The notes under the pieces: generated by a model
The model's database searches: none
Told to the model about the DNA's origin: nothing
The model's input: the letters and a program-made list of their open reading frames with translations, nothing else
DNA from: Escherichia phage mobillu
DNA length: 64,000 nucleotides
Sequence record: MN850622.1
Strand: one strand, 5' to 3'
Translations under genes and position numbers: made by a program
Shown: one piece after another, positions 2,229 through 62,201 of the stretch
Numbering within the stretch: position 1 is the first letter of the stretch
Layout of the letters: every line of letters begins with the position of its first letter

Positions 2229-3914
2229 ATGAAAAAAGCTGTTATTCTTGGTGCTGGATTGGCAACTCGTTTGTATCCAATAACGCATCATATTCCTAAG
2301 GTGCTTGTTAACTATAAACAAGACACTATTCTGAGCAATTTGTATACAATTTATTCTGACCTTGGCGCAGATGAAATTATTGTAGTAGTTCATTCAAAAT
2401 TTGCTGAAACTGTTCGAGCTTATTGTGAGCAAGAAGGGTTCAATGTGACTATTCGTACAGTTGATGAAGCGTATGGTTCTGCTTATGCTCTTGCTAAATT
2501 ACACAAAGATTTAGACGGCCATAATGTAATTGTTAACTGGTGTGATATTATTCCCGATTTTGGTTCATGGTCTTGGAATGTTAACGCAATCTATGTTAAG
2601 GGTGACGAATGTCGATATAATTTCGACGGTGAAAATATCACTAACGTAGGTTCAACAGGTGGTAATGTTGTAGGAATTTATCAGTTCAAAGACTGGGAAT
2701 TCTATATGGGTTCTACTGATGAGGAAATTCATGAATACTGCAAAGGACGTGATTTCGTAGAATTCCTTTACGGCAGCGCATTCAATAAATCAGAGCTTAT
2801 GAATATAATTGATTTAGGTGATATGCCTAAACTTGAAAAGGCTCATGAAGTTCGTGAACTTAATCGTAGTTTTAATGCAGTTGAAATTGGTGAAGAAACT
2901 GTAACTAAATTCGCATTAACCGAACAGGGACGAGCTCTTCAGAAAGATGAGATTTCGTGGTATTTGAAAGTGAAATCAGATTCAGTTCCTCAGTTAGTTT
3001 CTGTTAATGAAAATAACTTTGAAATGGAACGCATTAAAGGTAAGCCGGCATTTGAATATATTAAATCAAAATCAAGTCTTGCTCGTCCACAAATTATTGA
3101 TGCAATTTTAGATGCACTGAAATTCAGCACAGACACTTATTTTGTAAGTCCTGAAACTGTTCGTCGTGATTTCACTAAAGAATTCTATACGAAAGTTATT
3201 GATCGTTGTGAAAGCATTCAACCATTGATTGATTCATTTGGTAAAATCACACATGTGAACTACACTAAGATTGGACGTCTGAAGCCAATGCTGAAACAAG
3301 CTTTAGAACACCTTATTCGTTATCATAACCGTTCTCAGGGACAGTACTCTGTTATTCATGGTGACCCGAACTTCAGTAATACTATGATTACTGATAACGG
3401 CGAAGTCAAGTTTATCGACCCTCGTGGATATTTTGGCGAAACCAAGATTTACGGGCCAAAATTGTATGATGAAGCTAAAGTGCTTTATGCTGTTTCAGGT
3501 TATGATGAATTCAATGCTAATCCGACCTGGGGACAGTTTACTATTGATGAAACAACTTGTAATGTGACTATTAACATCAATCCATTAGTTTACAAATATG
3601 GAAAGATGAGTTCGTTTAACGAGTATCATCATTTGGCTGTAGCAATTATCTGGATTGCATTAGGTGGTTATTTCAAGAATAATCCACTTAAAGCGGTAGC
3701 CGCATATTATAAAGGTATGGAACTTCTGACTAAGCAATTACGTAACATGGGCCGTGTACTTCAAGACGGCTCTATTAGTTATGACGTAGCAGAACCTGTA
3801 ACGGCTACTCTGATTACAAAAAATCCTGGTAAATGGGTACTAACTGATAAAGAAACTGGTGTTTCCTATCGTCCAATCGGTGGCGATATCACTCATCAAT
3901 GGGAACGAATCTAA
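2229..3914 (+). CDS. bifunctional sugar-phosphate nucleotidyltransferase / phosphotransferase (APH or choline-kinase-like kinase domain)
   Basis: N-terminus MKKAVILGAGLATRLYPIT has the GxGxRL motif of sugar-1-P nucleotidyltransferases; C-terminal HGDPNFSNTMI plus IDPRG resemble the Brenner motif and DxG of APH/choline-kinase fold. Confidence 0.6.
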   Translation: MKKAVILGAGLATRLYPITHHIPKVLVNYKQDTILSNLYTIYSDLGADEIIVVVHSKFAETVRAYCEQEGFNVTIRTVDEAYGSAYALAKLHKDLDGHNVIVNWCDIIPDFGSWSWNVNAIYVKGDECRYNFDGENITNVGSTGGNVVGIYQFKDWEFYMGSTDEEIHEYCKGRDFVEFLYGSAFNKSELMNIIDLGDMPKLEKAHEVRELNRSFNAVEIGEETVTKFALTEQGRALQKDEISWYLKVKSDSVPQLVSVNENNFEMERIKGKPAFEYIKSKSSLARPQIIDAILDALKFSTDTYFVSPETVRRDFTKEFYTKVIDRCESIQPLIDSFGKITHVNYTKIGRLKPMLKQALEHLIRYHNRSQGQYSVIHGDPNFSNTMITDNGEVKFIDPRGYFGETKIYGPKLYDEAKVLYAVSGYDEFNANPTWGQFTIDETTCNVTININPLVYKYGKMSSFNEYHHLAVAIIWIALGGYFKNNPLKAVAAYYKGMELLTKQLRNMGRVLQDGSISYDVAEPVTATLITKNPGKWVLTDKETGVSYRPIGGDITHQWERI

Positions 3915-20706: not shown

Positions 20707-21018
20707 ATGGTTTATGTATATGCAATAGTTTATCGAGATATGGAAGGATTTACCGTCCCGGTTCCACTTGATGAGCATCGTCCTGCAGTATTTTTTAGAA
20801 AGGATATTGCAGATAAAGTTTTCGATACTTTGAAAACACAGTATAAAACAGATTTAAAAATGGGAGTTCTAAGAATGGTCGAAACTCCGCGTAAGTTCTG
20901 GTTTAATAAGCTTGAAATGAAACACGTTAAACTAGATGCGGAGACGCAAAGATTGTATCAACGAATCCTGGACACAGGCCGTATTGTTAGTATTCCAATT
21001 GCAGGGACTTTACGATGA
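20707..21018 (+). CDS. hypothetical protein (103 aa), dda.1 position
   Basis: Overlaps dda start by 4 nt (ATGA). Confidence 0.55.
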   Translation: MVYVYAIVYRDMEGFTVPVPLDEHRPAVFFRKDIADKVFDTLKTQYKTDLKMGVLRMVETPRKFWFNKLEMKHVKLDAETQRLYQRILDTGRIVSIPIAGTLR

Positions 21019-22328
21019 CATTTGATGATTTGACTGAAGGCCAGAAAAACGCCTTCAACGTTGTTATGGAAGCTATTAAAGAAAAGAAACATCACGTAAC
21101 TATTAATGGGCCTGCTGGTACAGGTAAAACAACCCTTACTAGATTTATTGTTGAAGCTCTTATTTCTTCAGGAGAATCAGGTATTATTTTAGCAGCCCCT
21201 ACACATGCTGCTAAAAAGGTTCTAAGCAAACTTGCGGGTCAAGAAGCATCGACTATTCATAGCATTCTTAAAATCAACCCAACTACATACGAAGAAAACG
21301 TATTGTTTGAACAGAAAAAGGTTCCCGACTTAGCCTTGTGCCGTGTACTGTTATTTGATGAAGCGTCAATGTGTGACCGTTCTCTGTTTAAAATAATGTT
21401 AGCTAGTATCCCTAAATGGTGTACAGTAATTGGAATTGGTGACCGATGCCAGATTCGTCCAGTAGACCCAGGTGAATCAACTGCGTATCTAAGTCCTTTC
21501 TTCACTCACAAAGACTTTGTGCAATGCAACCTTACAGAAGTTAAACGTAGCAATGCACCAATTATTGATGTTGCGACTGATATTCGTAATGGCAAATGGA
21601 TTTACGATAAAGTAGTTGATGGACACGGTGTTCATGGATATACAGACCTTAAATCGTATATGATGAACTATTTTAACGTTGTTAAAACTCCTGAAGACCT
21701 TTTCGAAAATCGAATGATGGCATTCACAAATAAGTCGGTGGACAAGTTAAATTCAATTATTCGCCGAAAACTTCTTGAAACAGAAAAACCATTTATTAAA
21801 GACGAAGTCATTGTTCTACAAGAGCCATTTACTAAGACATATAAGCTAGATGGTAAAAATATGACCGAAATGCTTTTCAATAACGGGCAATTCGTTCGTA
21901 TTCGAGATGCTGTAGAAACGTCTACATTCGTTAAAGCACGTGGTGTTTCAGGCGAATATATGATACGATACTGGAATCTTACAGTAGAAACATATGGGGA
22001 TGATGAAGAATACATCCGCGAAGATATAAAGGTTATTTCTTCTGAAGAAGAGCTTTATAAATTCAATTTGTTTTTGGCTAAGACCGCAGAAACATACAAA
22101 TTTTGGAATAAAGGTGGTAAAGCCCCATGGAGCGAATTCTGGGATGCTAAACGCATGTTCACTAAGGTGAAGGCACTACCTGTATCAACCTTCCATAAGG
22201 CCCAGGGTATATCTGTTGACACGGCCTTTGTTTATACACCGTGTATCCATTATGCCGATTCAGAATTAGCCAAACAATTACTATATGTCGGCACGACTCG
22301 TGGTCGTTTTGACGTCCATTTTATTTGA
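21015..22328 (+). CDS. dda: Dda SF1B DNA helicase
   Basis: Near-identical to remembered T4 Dda (MTFDDLTEGQKNAF..., Walker A GPAGTGKTT). Confidence 0.97.
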   Translation: MTFDDLTEGQKNAFNVVMEAIKEKKHHVTINGPAGTGKTTLTRFIVEALISSGESGIILAAPTHAAKKVLSKLAGQEASTIHSILKINPTTYEENVLFEQKKVPDLALCRVLLFDEASMCDRSLFKIMLASIPKWCTVIGIGDRCQIRPVDPGESTAYLSPFFTHKDFVQCNLTEVKRSNAPIIDVATDIRNGKWIYDKVVDGHGVHGYTDLKSYMMNYFNVVKTPEDLFENRMMAFTNKSVDKLNSIIRRKLLETEKPFIKDEVIVLQEPFTKTYKLDGKNMTEMLFNNGQFVRIRDAVETSTFVKARGVSGEYMIRYWNLTVETYGDDEEYIREDIKVISSEEELYKFNLFLAKTAETYKFWNKGGKAPWSEFWDAKRMFTKVKALPVSTFHKAQGISVDTAFVYTPCIHYADSELAKQLLYVGTTRGRFDVHFI

Positions 22329-22337
22329 GAGAAAATT

Positions 22338-23015
22338 ATGAGCACTGATGTTATTATAGATTTTGAAACATTCGGCAATACATCAAAAGCGGCTGTTATT
22401 GACCTTGCGGTTATTGCATATAATTCCGACCCTGAAGTTGTTGAATCATTTGAAGAACTTGTTCAACGAGGTAAGCGAATTAAATTTAATTTAGCTTCTC
22501 AGAAAGGGAAGCGAGTTTTCGCTAAATCCACTATGAAATGGTGGAAAGAGCAATCGGCTGAAGCACGTAAAAACTTGGCCCCGTCTGAAGACGATGTCAC
22601 TACGCTTGAAGGCATTAAAATCTTTTTAGATTATTGTCGAGCTAATAAAGTTGACCAATGGAAATCACAGATGTGGTGCCGTGGTATGAGCTTTGACTTC
22701 CCGATCTTGGTCGATTTGATTCGTGACCTCTATCGTGATGAAGGTGTTCTTGAACCAGATATTGATACTGATAAATTAGAACCGGTTAAATTCTGGGCTC
22801 AACGTGATATTCGTACGGCAATCGAAGCTTACTCGTTGACACGAGGATTAAGTATGTGTCCATTACCGATGGGTACGCTAAAAGGATTCGTTGCCCATGA
22901 TAGTATTCATGATTGTGCTAAAGATATTTTGATGTTAAAATATGCTCAGCGTTATGCGCTTGGCCTTGAAGATGTCCCTGAGAATCCTGACCCATTAAGT
23001 GTAAAACAGCGATAA
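22338..23015 (+). CDS. dexA: DexA exonuclease A
   Basis: DEDD-type N-terminus IIDFETFG; size and position as T4 dexA. Confidence 0.85.
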   Translation: MSTDVIIDFETFGNTSKAAVIDLAVIAYNSDPEVVESFEELVQRGKRIKFNLASQKGKRVFAKSTMKWWKEQSAEARKNLAPSEDDVTTLEGIKIFLDYCRANKVDQWKSQMWCRGMSFDFPILVDLIRDLYRDEGVLEPDIDTDKLEPVKFWAQRDIRTAIEAYSLTRGLSMCPLPMGTLKGFVAHDSIHDCAKDILMLKYAQRYALGLEDVPENPDPLSVKQR

Positions 23016-23020
23016 AACCG

Positions 23021-23050
23021 GTTTACAACCAAGGATGGTTGGAGTATAAT
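23021..23050 (+). promoter_or_regulatory. T4-type early promoter
   Basis: GTTTAC 23021-23026, 18 bp spacer, TATAAT 23045-23050. Confidence 0.6.
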
Positions 23051-23081
23051 CTTTCTATCTTAACCAAACAGGAAAAACATT

Positions 23082-23576
23082 ATGAATATCAATACTACGG
23101 CTACTTACATCCTGAAAGACGAAAAACAAATCAACTGGTACGGTGCTTCAGTGCGAGCTTATGAAAAGTTTTGTGAAATTTTAGGTGCCACTCAAGGTAA
23201 TAGTTTCACTATTGTTAACTTCATCAAACAAGCTGAAGGCCCTTGGTTATTCTTAGAAATTAAAAATTCATACGGTACAATTTCTACTGCCGCCCTTCCA
23301 AGCACCGACTTTGAACTGTTGATTGAAGAAGTAGAACCTGTTAAAGACATCTGTATTGATATGGATATCGCTTGTATGTACGGTACTCTGATTAAGCCTA
23401 TTGAGCCTACTGATTTGTTGTGTAAATATGTTTCAATTCGACGACCGTTCGCTGGTCCAGTAAATGGCTGGGTGTCTGACCAGTGGATTGAAGAAGGTGT
23501 TGAACTTCTGAACGTTGTTCATGCAGGTGATTTTAGTGTAGTTCCACGTAGTGCTGTGGTTAATATCCTTAATTAA
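23082..23576 (+). CDS. hypothetical protein, member 1 of tandem paralog family
   Basis: C-terminal GWVSDQWIEEGVELLNVVHAGDFSVVP shared with the next two genes. Confidence 0.6.
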   Translation: MNINTTATYILKDEKQINWYGASVRAYEKFCEILGATQGNSFTIVNFIKQAEGPWLFLEIKNSYGTISTAALPSTDFELLIEEVEPVKDICIDMDIACMYGTLIKPIEPTDLLCKYVSIRRPFAGPVNGWVSDQWIEEGVELLNVVHAGDFSVVPRSAVVNILN

Positions 23577-23578
23577 TG

Positions 23579-23608
23579 TTGTACATCCAAGGATGGATGG
23601 AGTATAGT
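23579..23608 (+). promoter_or_regulatory. T4-type early promoter (duplicate of 23021..23050 cassette)
   Basis: TTGTAC, 18 bp spacer, TATAGT; spacer ccaaggatggatggag nearly identical to upstream promoter spacer ccaaggatggttggag. Confidence 0.5.
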
Positions 23609-23638
23609 GAATTCAATTTAAACAAAGAGAGAGAAATT

Positions 23639-24094
23639 ATGATTGCTATTGGTGAAATTAAGCGTGTATCGTCTGCATCTCGTTCTAAAGCTGCAGGTCG
23701 TCTAGTTGAAGTGGTAGGACTTCGTACTAATGGTACTGGTCGTGTTAAAGAAGTTAAAGTTCGAATCATTCCTAGTTCTGGAAAAACTGAAACTCAGTAC
23801 GCTTACGTAAGTCCTAAATTTTTGGAAACTCATGTGAGCGCTCATTTTGCTTCTACTGAACCTAATGCACAGTTCAAATGGGCCCTTTGCAAAGGTGTTG
23901 AATTCCAGACTGATAAAGAATTTGACTTCATCGATGAATATGGTTATCCAAGCAAAACTGATACTATGTGTGGCTTCATTAGTGACCAATGGGTTGAAGA
24001 TGGTGAAAAGTTATACAATATCGTATTCTTAGGTGACTTCCGAGTTGTTAAAGAATCTGAAATCACTCGCTATGTGTCTCCTCGTAAAGCTTAA
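23639..24094 (+). CDS. hypothetical protein, member 2 of tandem paralog family
   Basis: Start after RBS agagagagaaatt; SRSKAAGRLVEVVG and GFISDQWVEDGEKLYNIVFLGDFRVV shared with paralogs. Confidence 0.6.
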   Translation: MIAIGEIKRVSSASRSKAAGRLVEVVGLRTNGTGRVKEVKVRIIPSSGKTETQYAYVSPKFLETHVSAHFASTEPNAQFKWALCKGVEFQTDKEFDFIDEYGYPSKTDTMCGFISDQWVEDGEKLYNIVFLGDFRVVKESEITRYVSPRKA

Positions 24095-24103
24095 GGAATT
24101 ATT

Positions 24104-24523
24104 ATGAATATTGTAAATCTCTCTACAGGTGATTACGTATATGTATCCGTTGCTTCTCGCTCTAAAGTTGCCGGGAAGTTGGTTGAAGTTCTTTCTGTGA
24201 GTGATCCGGTTTTTGGACGTAACGAAGTTAAAGTTCGTGACGCTGATGGTAACATTGGTTATGTCTCAAGCCAATTCATTGAACCAGAAGAAAAAGCGTT
24301 CAAATGGGGACTATGCAGATCAGTTTCTGTTGAAAAAGACCATGAATTCACTATTGCTGCGGCAACTGATGGAACACCGTGGAAAACTAAGCAAATCGCC
24401 GGATTTATTAGCGACCGTTGGGTAGAAGATGGTGTTAAGCTTTATAACATCGTTTTCGCTGGACAGTTCATGGTAGTTCCTGAATTCCAAATTAAAAAAT
24501 ATAGCCCAGCTGCTTTTGCATAA
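24104..24523 (+). CDS. hypothetical protein, member 3 of tandem paralog family
   Basis: SRSKVAGKLVEVLS, FKWGLC and GFISDRWVEDGVKLYNIVFAGQFMVVP shared with paralogs. Confidence 0.6.
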   Translation: MNIVNLSTGDYVYVSVASRSKVAGKLVEVLSVSDPVFGRNEVKVRDADGNIGYVSSQFIEPEEKAFKWGLCRSVSVEKDHEFTIAAATDGTPWKTKQIAGFISDRWVEDGVKLYNIVFAGQFMVVPEFQIKKYSPAAFA

Positions 24524-24527
24524 AGTT

Positions 24528-24556
24528 GTTTACTTCTCCTCTGGTTTTGATATTAT
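24528..24556 (+). promoter_or_regulatory. T4-type early promoter
   Basis: GTTTAC 24528-24533, 17 bp spacer, TATTAT 24551-24556. Confidence 0.55.
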
Positions 24557-24582
24557 AACCATATCAACCAGAGGAGAATAAT

Positions 24583-25107
24583 ATGTTAGTTTACCGCGTA
24601 GAACGTAGTTTTTGTACTCAACGTGAATCATTACCAGGAATTGCTATCGAAGACGGTAAAGCCGTCAGAATTTGGGAAACCTCTTGGAATAAAGAACCTC
24701 GCTCGCCGTACGGTTGGTCGGGCACCGACAACTCTGAAGAAACATGGGAGTTCCTTGATAAACACGGAATACTCTCAGGTAACTTCTACCATCACGGCGA
24801 CAACTATAATGTCCCTAATCGTCCTACAGTAAATGAAGACAAACTCCTTGAACAAAATATCTTAAGATACCATAGAATTGAGTACACATTTGAATTGAGT
24901 GAAGATTGGGCTCAAGGGTTCTATTTTGGATTTGAAAGTGTTGACGCGGTTTATGCATGGTTTGATGACCAGGTGGATGTTGAACTCTTGAAAGCTAAAG
25001 GATACTACATCGCGGTCTATGAAGCACCTGATTTCATCCTCGGAAGTTGTCAATTAATGTTCAGACGTTCATTGGCAGAACAAGTTGATTTTATTTTGCT
25101 AAAATGA
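24583..25107 (+). CDS. hypothetical protein (174 aa)
   Basis: RBS accagaggagaataat; no motif. Confidence 0.55.
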   Translation: MLVYRVERSFCTQRESLPGIAIEDGKAVRIWETSWNKEPRSPYGWSGTDNSEETWEFLDKHGILSGNFYHHGDNYNVPNRPTVNEDKLLEQNILRYHRIEYTFELSEDWAQGFYFGFESVDAVYAWFDDQVDVELLKAKGYYIAVYEAPDFILGSCQLMFRRSLAEQVDFILLK

Positions 25108-34513: not shown

Positions 34514-34543
34514 TTGTACAAACTCTTGAGAGCAGAGTATAAT
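34514..34543 (+). promoter_or_regulatory. T4-type early promoter with inverted repeat flanking -10
   Basis: TTGTAC, 18 bp spacer, TATAAT; GAGAGCA-gagtataa-TGCTCTC. Confidence 0.55.
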
Positions 34544-62172: not shown

Positions 62173-62201
62173 TTTACAAACTCTCAGGAGCAGAGTATAA
62201 T
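62173..62201 (+). promoter_or_regulatory. T4-type early promoter with inverted repeat flanking -10
   Basis: GTTTAC, 17 bp spacer, TATAAT; GGAGCA-gagtataa-TGCTCC; near-duplicate of the 34514 promoter. Confidence 0.55.

Follow-up and report, generated by a model that had tools for sequence, protein, structure and literature searches.

The motB.1-motB-motB′ Gene Array Downstream of dexA in an RB69-Like Mosigvirus: Domain Sharing, Age, and Promoters

Three adjacent genes encoding proteins of 164, 151, and 139 aa are located downstream of dexA in the analyzed stretch of phage DNA (64 kb, herein referred to as the window). A first-pass annotation of this DNA, which placed the genes correctly, interpreted them as a recent tandem triplication of a promoter-gene unit, a pattern it linked to diversifying selection on genes for host range or anti-defence. 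The locus raises the questions of what these genes are, how and when they came to resemble each other, and whether the likeness of their promoters has the same origin.

Gene Content and Domain Composition

The array is located on the + strand after dda (21015-22328) and dexA (22338-23015), and its three genes, herein referred to as motB.1, motB, and motB′, lie head to tail (Table 1). The gap between motB and motB′ is 9 nt, and a longer open reading of 172 aa is possible for motB from the ATG at 23576. The genes found 3′ of motB′ are a 174-aa gene (24583-25107), cef, goF, 39.2, a 140-aa gene, and gene 39. The 174-aa gene belongs to phrog_1106 and is an ortholog of T4 motB.2, unrelated in sequence to the three genes of the array; the hairpin preceding it has a free energy of -23.9 kcal/mol (z -5.7). 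Farther downstream, phrog_622 matches both GoF and the 140-aa ORF005c-like protein, but the BLASTP E-value between these two is 0.4 and no second pair of paralogs is claimed.

Table 1. Features of the motB.1-motB-motB′ array and its downstream boundary.
Feature	Position	Strand	Description
P1	23022-23050	+	Predicted sigma-70-type early promoter upstream of motB.1; TTTACA-17-TATAAT; 11/12 matches
motB.1	23082-23576	+	164 aa; LSm/SH3-like NTD, linker with DMDIACMYGTLIKP motif, complete MotB-type CTD
CTD core of MotB.1	23460-23573	+	Residues 127-164; phmmer and BLASTP alignments to MotB and MotB′
P2	23580-23608	+	Predicted early-promoter-like site upstream of motB; TGTACA-17-TATAGT; 9/12 matches
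motB	23639-24094	+	151 aa from ATG at 23639; basic KOW-like NTD and CTD
CTD core of MotB	23966-24079	+	Residues 110-147; phmmer/BLASTP alignments
motB′	24104-24523	+	139 aa; second, diverged MotB copy (RB69 ORF010c); without own promoter
CTD core of MotB′	24395-24508	+	Residues 98-135; phmmer/BLASTP alignments
motB.2 cassette	24529-25107	+	Downstream boundary of the array; early promoter 24529-24556, hairpin 24534-24578 over the Shine-Dalgarno sequence, 174-aa gene 24583-25107

A megablast search with the region 22338-25107 retrieved 461 phage records. The best matches (96.5-98.4% identity) belong to Mosigvirus, with the region annotated as exonuclease and MotB-like regulator; among them is the SA35RD record, which is classified as Mosigvirus. 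The window comes from a T-even phage, an RB69-like Mosigvirus. The same gene order is found in the RB69 annotation: dexA, motB.1 (132 aa), ORF012c (29 aa), motB (151 aa), ORF010c (139 aa, MotB-like), motB.2, and cef. Previously, RB69 was described as carrying two motB copies, one motB.1, and one 29-aa peptide (Patterson-West et al., 2021; PMC7827196). The motB′ gene is the ortholog of ORF010c, with 96% amino acid identity, the same position, the same length, and no material difference. The order in T4 is dexA-motB.2-motB.1-motB-cef, versus dexA-motB.1-motB-motB′-motB.2-cef in the window.

A conserved C-terminal domain (CTD) was found in all three proteins, as the first-pass annotation had proposed, with BLASTP E-values ranging from 8e-33 to 6e-10. 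Thus, MotB and MotB′ are 44% identical over 145 aa (E 8e-33), MotB.1 and MotB′ are 32% identical over 79 aa (E 3e-10), and MotB.1 and MotB are 44% identical over 36 aa (E 6e-10). In the three-way alignment, 26 columns are invariant and most of these fall within the C-terminal core (G-x-x-SD-x-W-x-E-x-G / L-x-N-x-V / G-x-F-x-VV), and the core motifs of MotB.1 are approximate versions of the common ones (GWVSDQWIEEG, LLNVVH). An N-terminal SRSKxAGxLVEV block, previously noticed in two of the three genes, is present in MotB (SRSKAAGRLVEV) and MotB′ (SRSKVAGKLVEV) and absent from MotB.1. No additional copies of the CTD were found across the 64-kb window.

These similarities agree with profile searches, including the search for the shared domain that had been suggested. 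All three proteins score above the gathering cut-off of the Pfam motB family (PF17613, 25 bits): MotB over its full length with 130.5 bits (E 6.9e-38), which places it in the MotB family, MotB′ over its full length with 76.3 bits (E 3.1e-21), and MotB.1 with 31 bits over residues 84-159 only, i.e., in the CTD. In PHROGs, MotB and MotB′ belong to the MotB-like phrog_1671 (E 1.4e-51 for MotB′). MotB.1 belongs over its full length to phrog_2333 (E 1.6e-80), and only its last 38 residues match phrog_1671. A search of PDB sequences with the MotB profile gave nothing meaningful (best E 0.59). By these alignments, the three genes are paralogous in at least one domain, and motB and motB′ are true duplicates over their full length. 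Tandem duplication therefore holds for motB and motB′ but does not extend to a triplication, since motB.1 shares only its C-terminal 36-80 residues with the other two genes and has a different N-terminal domain (NTD), of the MotB.1 type.

In total, 102 MotB homologs were previously sorted into MotB proper, with a KOW-like NTD and the CTD, and the MotB.1 type, in which other NTDs precede the CTD (Patterson-West et al., 2021; PMC7827196). MotB of the window has, over its full length, a KOW-like NTD followed by the MotB CTD and belongs to MotB proper (Category 1). AF2 models were built for MotB and MotB.1 on alignments of database homologs. The MotB model (pLDDT 83.5) has two β domains, at residues 7-57 and 86-145, with a disordered linker between them. 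The MotB.1 model (pLDDT 78.5) has a β/α NTD (residues 8-83), a low-confidence linker (86-106), and a β CTD (116-163).

MotB.1 is 42-45% identical to T4 MotB.1 over the full length. Its CTD is of the MotB.1 type, with 70-84% identity to MotB.1-class CTDs across genera versus 44% to the CTD of MotB from the same array. Its NTD is a five-stranded bent β-sheet (LSm/SH3-like), homologous to that of T4 MotB.1, and belongs to the phage LSm-like fold family that includes the T4 protein (Kim et al., 2025; PMC12152347). MotB.1 of the window shares with the T4 protein the NTD and the MotB.1-type CTD (PTDLLCK...GWVxDQWIExGVELLNVVHAGxxSVVPRS). Unlike its T4 counterpart, the gene in the window is intact and encodes a 24-residue linker insert carrying DMDIACMYGTLIKP; it is located immediately after dexA with a promoter of its own, while T4 motB.1 comes after motB.2. 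A 1-nt frameshift interrupts the T4 reference motB.1 (119 aa), and that of RB69 (132 + 29 aa) is frameshifted too. Because the reference sequences are truncated, the 119-aa "T4 MotB.1" used in experiments may lack the last strands of the conserved CTD.

MotB.1 could have been born by recombinational fusion (domain shuffling), in which an LSm-like gene that already existed in the GoF/Frd.2 family acquired a copy of the MotB CTD alone, rather than by duplication of a whole motB gene; we consider the case for this origin evenly balanced. In agreement with a fusion, MotB.1-class CTDs sit behind varied NTD arrangements (forms of 143-169, 176-183, and 241-250 aa), and one such CTD, in Enterobacter phage ZX14, sits behind a KOW-like NTD. 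Additionally, the linker motif DMDIACMYGTLIKP shifts its position relative to the NTD, and the LSm-like NTD is common to GoF and Frd.2, which do not have this CTD (PMC12152347). However, duplication of the whole gene followed by replacement of the NTD would give the same end state, and with the sequences saturated a recombination junction can no longer be detected.

Age, Selection, and Distribution

Substitution rates were calculated by the Nei-Gojobori method, with ortholog pairs formed by the window and phiC120, RB69, or ime09. For motB versus motB′, pS is 0.685, dS is about 1.8, and dN is 0.50. Synonymous sites are saturated between motB.1 and either of the other two genes, and pS for the paralogs is 0.69-0.75. 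At the DNA level, motB and motB′ are similar only in patches of at most 57 nt with 73-77% identity. Since these two proteins are 44% identical and their synonymous sites are near saturation, their duplication is old. The copy number, a comparison also suggested at the first pass, does not vary among the Mosigvirus relatives examined. With saturated paralogs, no coding-region DNA repeat longer than 57 nt, and this invariant copy number, the array does not have the marks of recent tandem amplification.

The distribution of the genes points in the same direction. A tblastn search with MotB retrieved 771 records, 202 of them with at least 60% identity and 569 with less than 60% (T4-type MotB). The search with MotB′ retrieved 777 phage records, including 207 with at least 80% identity, none with 60-80%, and 570 with less than 60%. 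Judged by these matching counts, RB69-type motB and motB′ appear to co-occur in about 200 genomes. The same trio, including the motB′ lineage, is found in the Tequatrovirus ime09, where the order is dexA-motB.2-motB.1-like-motB-motB′. A single motB was found in each of JS10 (Dhakavirus), P896 (Gaprivervirus), and one Klebsiella phage. In the neighbor-joining tree of MotB and MotB′ proteins, MotB′ forms a separate clade, with the order of its split relative to RB69-type and T4-type MotB at 38% support. The presence of the motB′ lineage in ime09 and in 207 phage records, like the synonymous divergence of motB and motB′, speaks against the recent origin that had been proposed. Both the duplication that produced motB and motB′ and the CTD that they have in common with motB.1 are, on this reading, ancient.

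Between ime09 and the window, dS is 0.29 for motB and 0.51 for motB′, compared to about 3 for dexA and saturation for motB.2. That motB and motB′ are far closer to the window than the flanking dexA and motB.2 indicates that this two-gene module was transferred between genera; the pair would move between T-even genera as a unit.

The ortholog dN/dS values are 0.05-0.09 for dexA, 0.13 for motB.1, 0.27-0.28 for motB, 0.10-0.17 for motB′, and 0.12-0.17 for motB.2. On these ratios, all three genes of the array are under purifying selection, and the idea of diversifying selection is not borne out (0.10-0.28). The most variable of them is motB, with 80% amino acid identity to phiC120 versus 97% for motB.1 and 94% for motB′. 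Its dS is also raised, 0.53 versus 0.10-0.22 for the neighboring genes. The fast change of motB is accompanied by high dS, a combination suggesting the exchange of alleles rather than positive selection.

In light of these data, a recent tandem triplication of a promoter and gene unit, with the copies now subject to diversifying selection in host-range or anti-defence roles, is highly improbable. The genes are indeed adjacent, in the same orientation, and share motifs, the cores of the two promoters are nearly identical, and motB does evolve faster than its neighbors. However, the synonymous sites of the paralogs are saturated, the NTD of MotB.1 is unrelated, and the trio is conserved across genera in about 200 genomes. 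Additionally, dN/dS does not exceed 0.28 in any of the genes, and the fast change of motB, at a dS of 0.53, suggests allele exchange. The remaining points that bear on this reading concern the promoters: motB′ has none, and the spacer of the motB promoter is not common to the homologous promoters of other genera (see below). As for a host-range or anti-defence role, nothing in the data supports it; the family comprises DNA-binding early proteins that interfere with H-NS (PMC6070864; PMC7827196).

Predicted Promoters P1 and P2

The predicted promoters preceding the first two genes are nearly identical, as originally noticed. P1 is the best promoter match in the 9 kb scanned (19-28 kb) and is kept in RB69, SA35RD, and phiC120, with a promoter annotated there in the SA35RD record. 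The score of P2 (9/12) is not above that of shuffled sequences, and the scan overall is not enriched over shuffles. P1 and P2 are identical in 15 of 17 spacer bases, sharing CCAAGGATGGWTGGAG, and in 25 of 29 core bases, and the repeat runs into the leader (48 nt at 75%). The 20-mer CCAAGGATGGWTGGAGTATA has exactly two sites in the 64 kb at up to 3 mismatches, P1 and P2, with 0 expected. Elsewhere in the window, early promoters with a 17-nt spacer have 3-11 of 17 spacer bases in common, apart from the control pair 34515/62173. These comparisons support a likeness of P1 and P2 exceeding what the promoter consensus would explain.

This likeness does not make the array a set of promoter-gene cassettes. 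No promoter of its own was found for motB′, only a Shine-Dalgarno sequence in the gap after motB. In T4, ime09, P896, and JS10, motB is also preceded, in the equivalent position, by a promoter-like site, whose spacer is a different one (AACTCTTGGGACCAGAG) and whose leader is longer by 14 nt. No own promoter of motB.1 was found in T4, ime09, JS10, or P896. In T4, ime09, and JS10, motB.1 follows the promoter-bearing motB.2; in P896, another gene takes the place of motB.2. The promoter-hairpin unit of motB.2 travels with its gene, being located after dexA in T4, ime09, and JS10 and after motB′ in the window. Furthermore, an equally similar pair of early promoters in the window, the control pair 34515/62173, stands before unrelated genes. 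Because motB.1 of other genera lacks its own promoter and their motB promoter has another spacer, the likeness of P1 and P2 is secondary and specific to Mosigvirus, rather than left over from gene duplication. It is best read as a copy or conversion of the promoter-leader specific to Mosigvirus. The copying, whose direction and mechanism are inferred from the cross-genus comparison alone, would have supplied motB.1 with a promoter in a lineage where it does not lie behind the motB.2 cassette. This later event would have involved about 50 bp and was probably linked to the position of the motB.2 promoter cassette, downstream of the cluster here versus upstream of motB.1 in T4.

Alternatively, P1 and P2 may be alike as members of a constrained subtype of early promoters, through selection, convergence, or PeSL-like promoter families, with neither copied from the other. 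Early promoters of this genome do fall into subfamilies with shared spacers, e.g., 12795/33745/34254, and the control pair 34515/62173 is identical in 14 of 17 spacer and 25 of 29 core bases and precedes genes for proteins without detectable similarity. Moreover, conserved cassettes made up of a promoter and a stem-loop (PeSLs), with TTTACW-N17-TAYWAT as the promoter consensus, are known from T4-type phages (PMC4122927). We nevertheless regard this explanation as rather unlikely: the CCAAGGATGGWTGGAGTATA spacer is confined to P1 and P2 in the 64 kb, the similarity continues into the leader, neither site has a PeSL stem-loop, and copying is the simplest explanation of subfamily membership itself.

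The PeSL cassettes (Arbiol, 2010; PMC2839356; Comeau, 2014; PMC4122927) are one of the closest known systems. Repeated, nearly identical early promoters within a hyperplastic early region are common to both systems, and the neighboring motB.2 unit, whose promoter is enclosed in a hairpin, resembles a cassette that can be relocated. P1 agrees with the PeSL promoter consensus, and P2 has one mismatch in the -35 element. No hairpins were found at P1, P2, or the motB-motB′ gap, the folding at P1 (z -0.37) and P2 (z +0.15) being no better than that of shuffles. P1 and P2 are therefore not full PeSLs; in contrast to these, they lack the stem-loop half and represent promoter-leader repeats.

Host sigma-70 RNA polymerase would start at P1 and P2 right after infection. 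Since there is no terminator or hairpin between the three genes, motB and motB′ would be co-transcribed and transcripts from P1 would probably read through, so that the array probably forms overlapping transcription units.

Predicted Functions of the Array

Taken together, the array very probably represents the motB.1-motB-motB′ segment of the non-essential early region (dda-dexA ... cef-goF-39) in an RB69-like Mosigvirus. Its two-domain proteins would have a common CTD, with an ancient motB/motB′ duplication and CTD sharing, purifying selection, and a later Mosigvirus-specific P1/P2 copy. The gene family, the domain sharing, and the two-motB arrangement of RB69 were published before, and the array is ordinary and already known. 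The present checks add that the duplication is of ancient date, that its products evolve under purifying selection, that motB and motB′ behave as a mobile unit, and that the promoter likeness is a separate, lineage-specific feature.

T4 MotB is an abundant early protein, toxic in E. coli, that binds both modified and unmodified dsDNA without sequence specificity, co-purifies with H-NS and StpA, alters H-NS footprints, and doubles the burst size (PMC6070864; PMC7827196). MotB of the window resembles it in the SRSK...LVEV KOW-like block, the GxxSDQWVEDG...LYNxVF CTD, the basic NTD, the placement of its gene between dexA and cef, and an upstream promoter-like site in the matching position. The two proteins are only 49% identical and differ in length (151 versus 162 aa), and their genes differ in promoter spacer and leader. 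Toxicity, DNA binding, and the link to H-NS were demonstrated for the T4 protein only.

Protein charge was used only as a proxy for DNA binding. T4 MotB is strongly basic, with a predicted pI of 9.23, which is consistent with non-specific DNA binding. In the window, MotB has a pI of 8.5 and an NTD net charge of +8, MotB′ has a pI of 5.8 and an NTD net charge of -1, and MotB.1 has a pI of 4.5. Across the orthologs examined, the net charge of the first 60 residues is +4 to +9 in MotB and -1 to 0 in MotB′. By this proxy, only MotB of the three looks like a non-specific DNA binder; MotB.1 and MotB′ are not basic and may not bind DNA as MotB does.

Thus, the three genes would encode small all-β two-domain proteins with one common C-terminal β-barrel module, the MotB CTD. 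By homology to T4 MotB, MotB would bind dsDNA without sequence preference, meet H-NS/StpA on the DNA, remodel H-NS-DNA complexes, and modestly raise the burst size. MotB′ would be an old full-length duplicate that lost the positive charge of the NTD, and MotB.1 would carry the same CTD behind an LSm/SH3-like NTD of the GoF/Frd.2 type.

A tentative and rather doubtful possibility is that MotB′ is not redundant but a sub- or neo-functionalized partner of MotB, which lost the basic DNA-binding surface of the NTD and kept the CTD. The two genes would then form an obligate module of RB69-type motB and motB′, exchanged between Mosigvirus and some Tequatrovirus. If this is true, the CTD shared by MotB, MotB′, and MotB.1 would, as a hypothesis, be a common docking or oligomerization module, serving, e.g., contacts with a host nucleoid protein or among the three proteins, and would bring different N-terminal nucleic-acid-binding heads to one target.

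Reading frame and linker motif of MotB.1

The T4 reference (NC_000866) contains one additional G in motB.1 (GGATTGGAAGATGG vs. GGATTGAAGATGG), and its product is 119 aa long, the final ~28 residues of the conserved C-terminal domain being lost by frameshift. Resequenced T4 (MT984581) encodes an intact MotB.1 of 143 aa, ending in ...EDGVELLNVVHAGEYSVVPRSAVVAILN, and this form was found on 256 contigs. The 13.8-kDa protein given for T4 MotB.1 in published work is the truncated form. The RB69 reference gene is likewise broken, into a 132-aa frame and the 29-aa ORF012c, whereas motB.1 of the window is intact (164 aa).

In Mosigvirus MotB.1, a motif (see table) is placed in the linker between the N- and C-terminal domains. 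It was also located in the database homologues P0117, P0122, P0125, and others; T4 MotB.1 lacks it. In MotB.1-class proteins of 176-183 aa the motif lies at the N terminus or within ~20 residues of it, and those of 241-250 aa carry it between their two barrel domains.

Features of the motB region and related loci (window coordinates unless stated)
Feature	Coordinates	Remark
Linker motif, ~17 residues, (I/F)DMD(I/V)A(C/S)MYGTLIKP	23355-23405	MotB.1 residues 92-108
motB.1 region, resequenced T4 MT984581	606-1037 (MT984581)	compared with window 23460-23576
N-terminal extension, 172-aa motB reading	23576-23638	
motB.2 early promoter and hairpin	24529-24582	TTTACT-16-TATTAT
GoF, 137 aa	25392-25805	matches phrog_622
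ORF005c-like protein, 140 aa	25987-26409	matches phrog_622
Second near-identical early-promoter pair	34515-34543 and 62173-62201	25/29 identical, spacer AACTCTYRGAGNGCAGAG

Start of motB and early promoters

In several database records motB is annotated as 172 aa, with an initiating ATG overlapping the stop codon of motB.1 (TAATG). The shorter start (23639, 151 aa) is more likely, because the longer reading starts upstream of the -10 of P2, the early-promoter-like site 5′ of motB, RB69 lacks its extension, and the start of the 151-aa MotB coincides with that of the Pfam profile.

The motB.2 early promoter is enclosed by a hairpin (24534-24578; 18-bp stem, -23.9 kcal/mol, z -5.7). The 3′ arm of this hairpin covers the GAGGAG Shine-Dalgarno of motB.2, so that the ribosome site could be masked in read-through transcripts from upstream; transcripts initiated within the loop presumably could not mask it. 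T4, ime09, and JS10 have the same promoter-hairpin unit before motB.2 but elsewhere than in the window, directly after dexA.

Both members of the second promoter pair have an inverted repeat across the -10, and their spacer resembles the T4-type motB promoter spacer. The genes downstream encode unrelated proteins of 148 aa and 99 aa, respectively.

Possible relatives of the MotB family and suggested exchange between genera

Gene 39.2 is flanked by GoF and the ORF005c-like protein. The latter has, in addition, a weak hit to phrog_2333, the MotB.1 family (E 0.004). When GoF and the ORF005c-like protein were compared directly by BLASTP, their similarity was not significant (E 0.4); a distant LSm-like kinship is possible.

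Between the Tequatrovirus ime09 (2998-3903) and the window (23639-24523), dS is 0.29 for motB and 0.51 for motB′. For the flanking dexA and motB.2, dS is saturated, far beyond this divergence, which suggests that motB and motB′ were exchanged horizontally between Tequatrovirus and Mosigvirus as a two-gene module.
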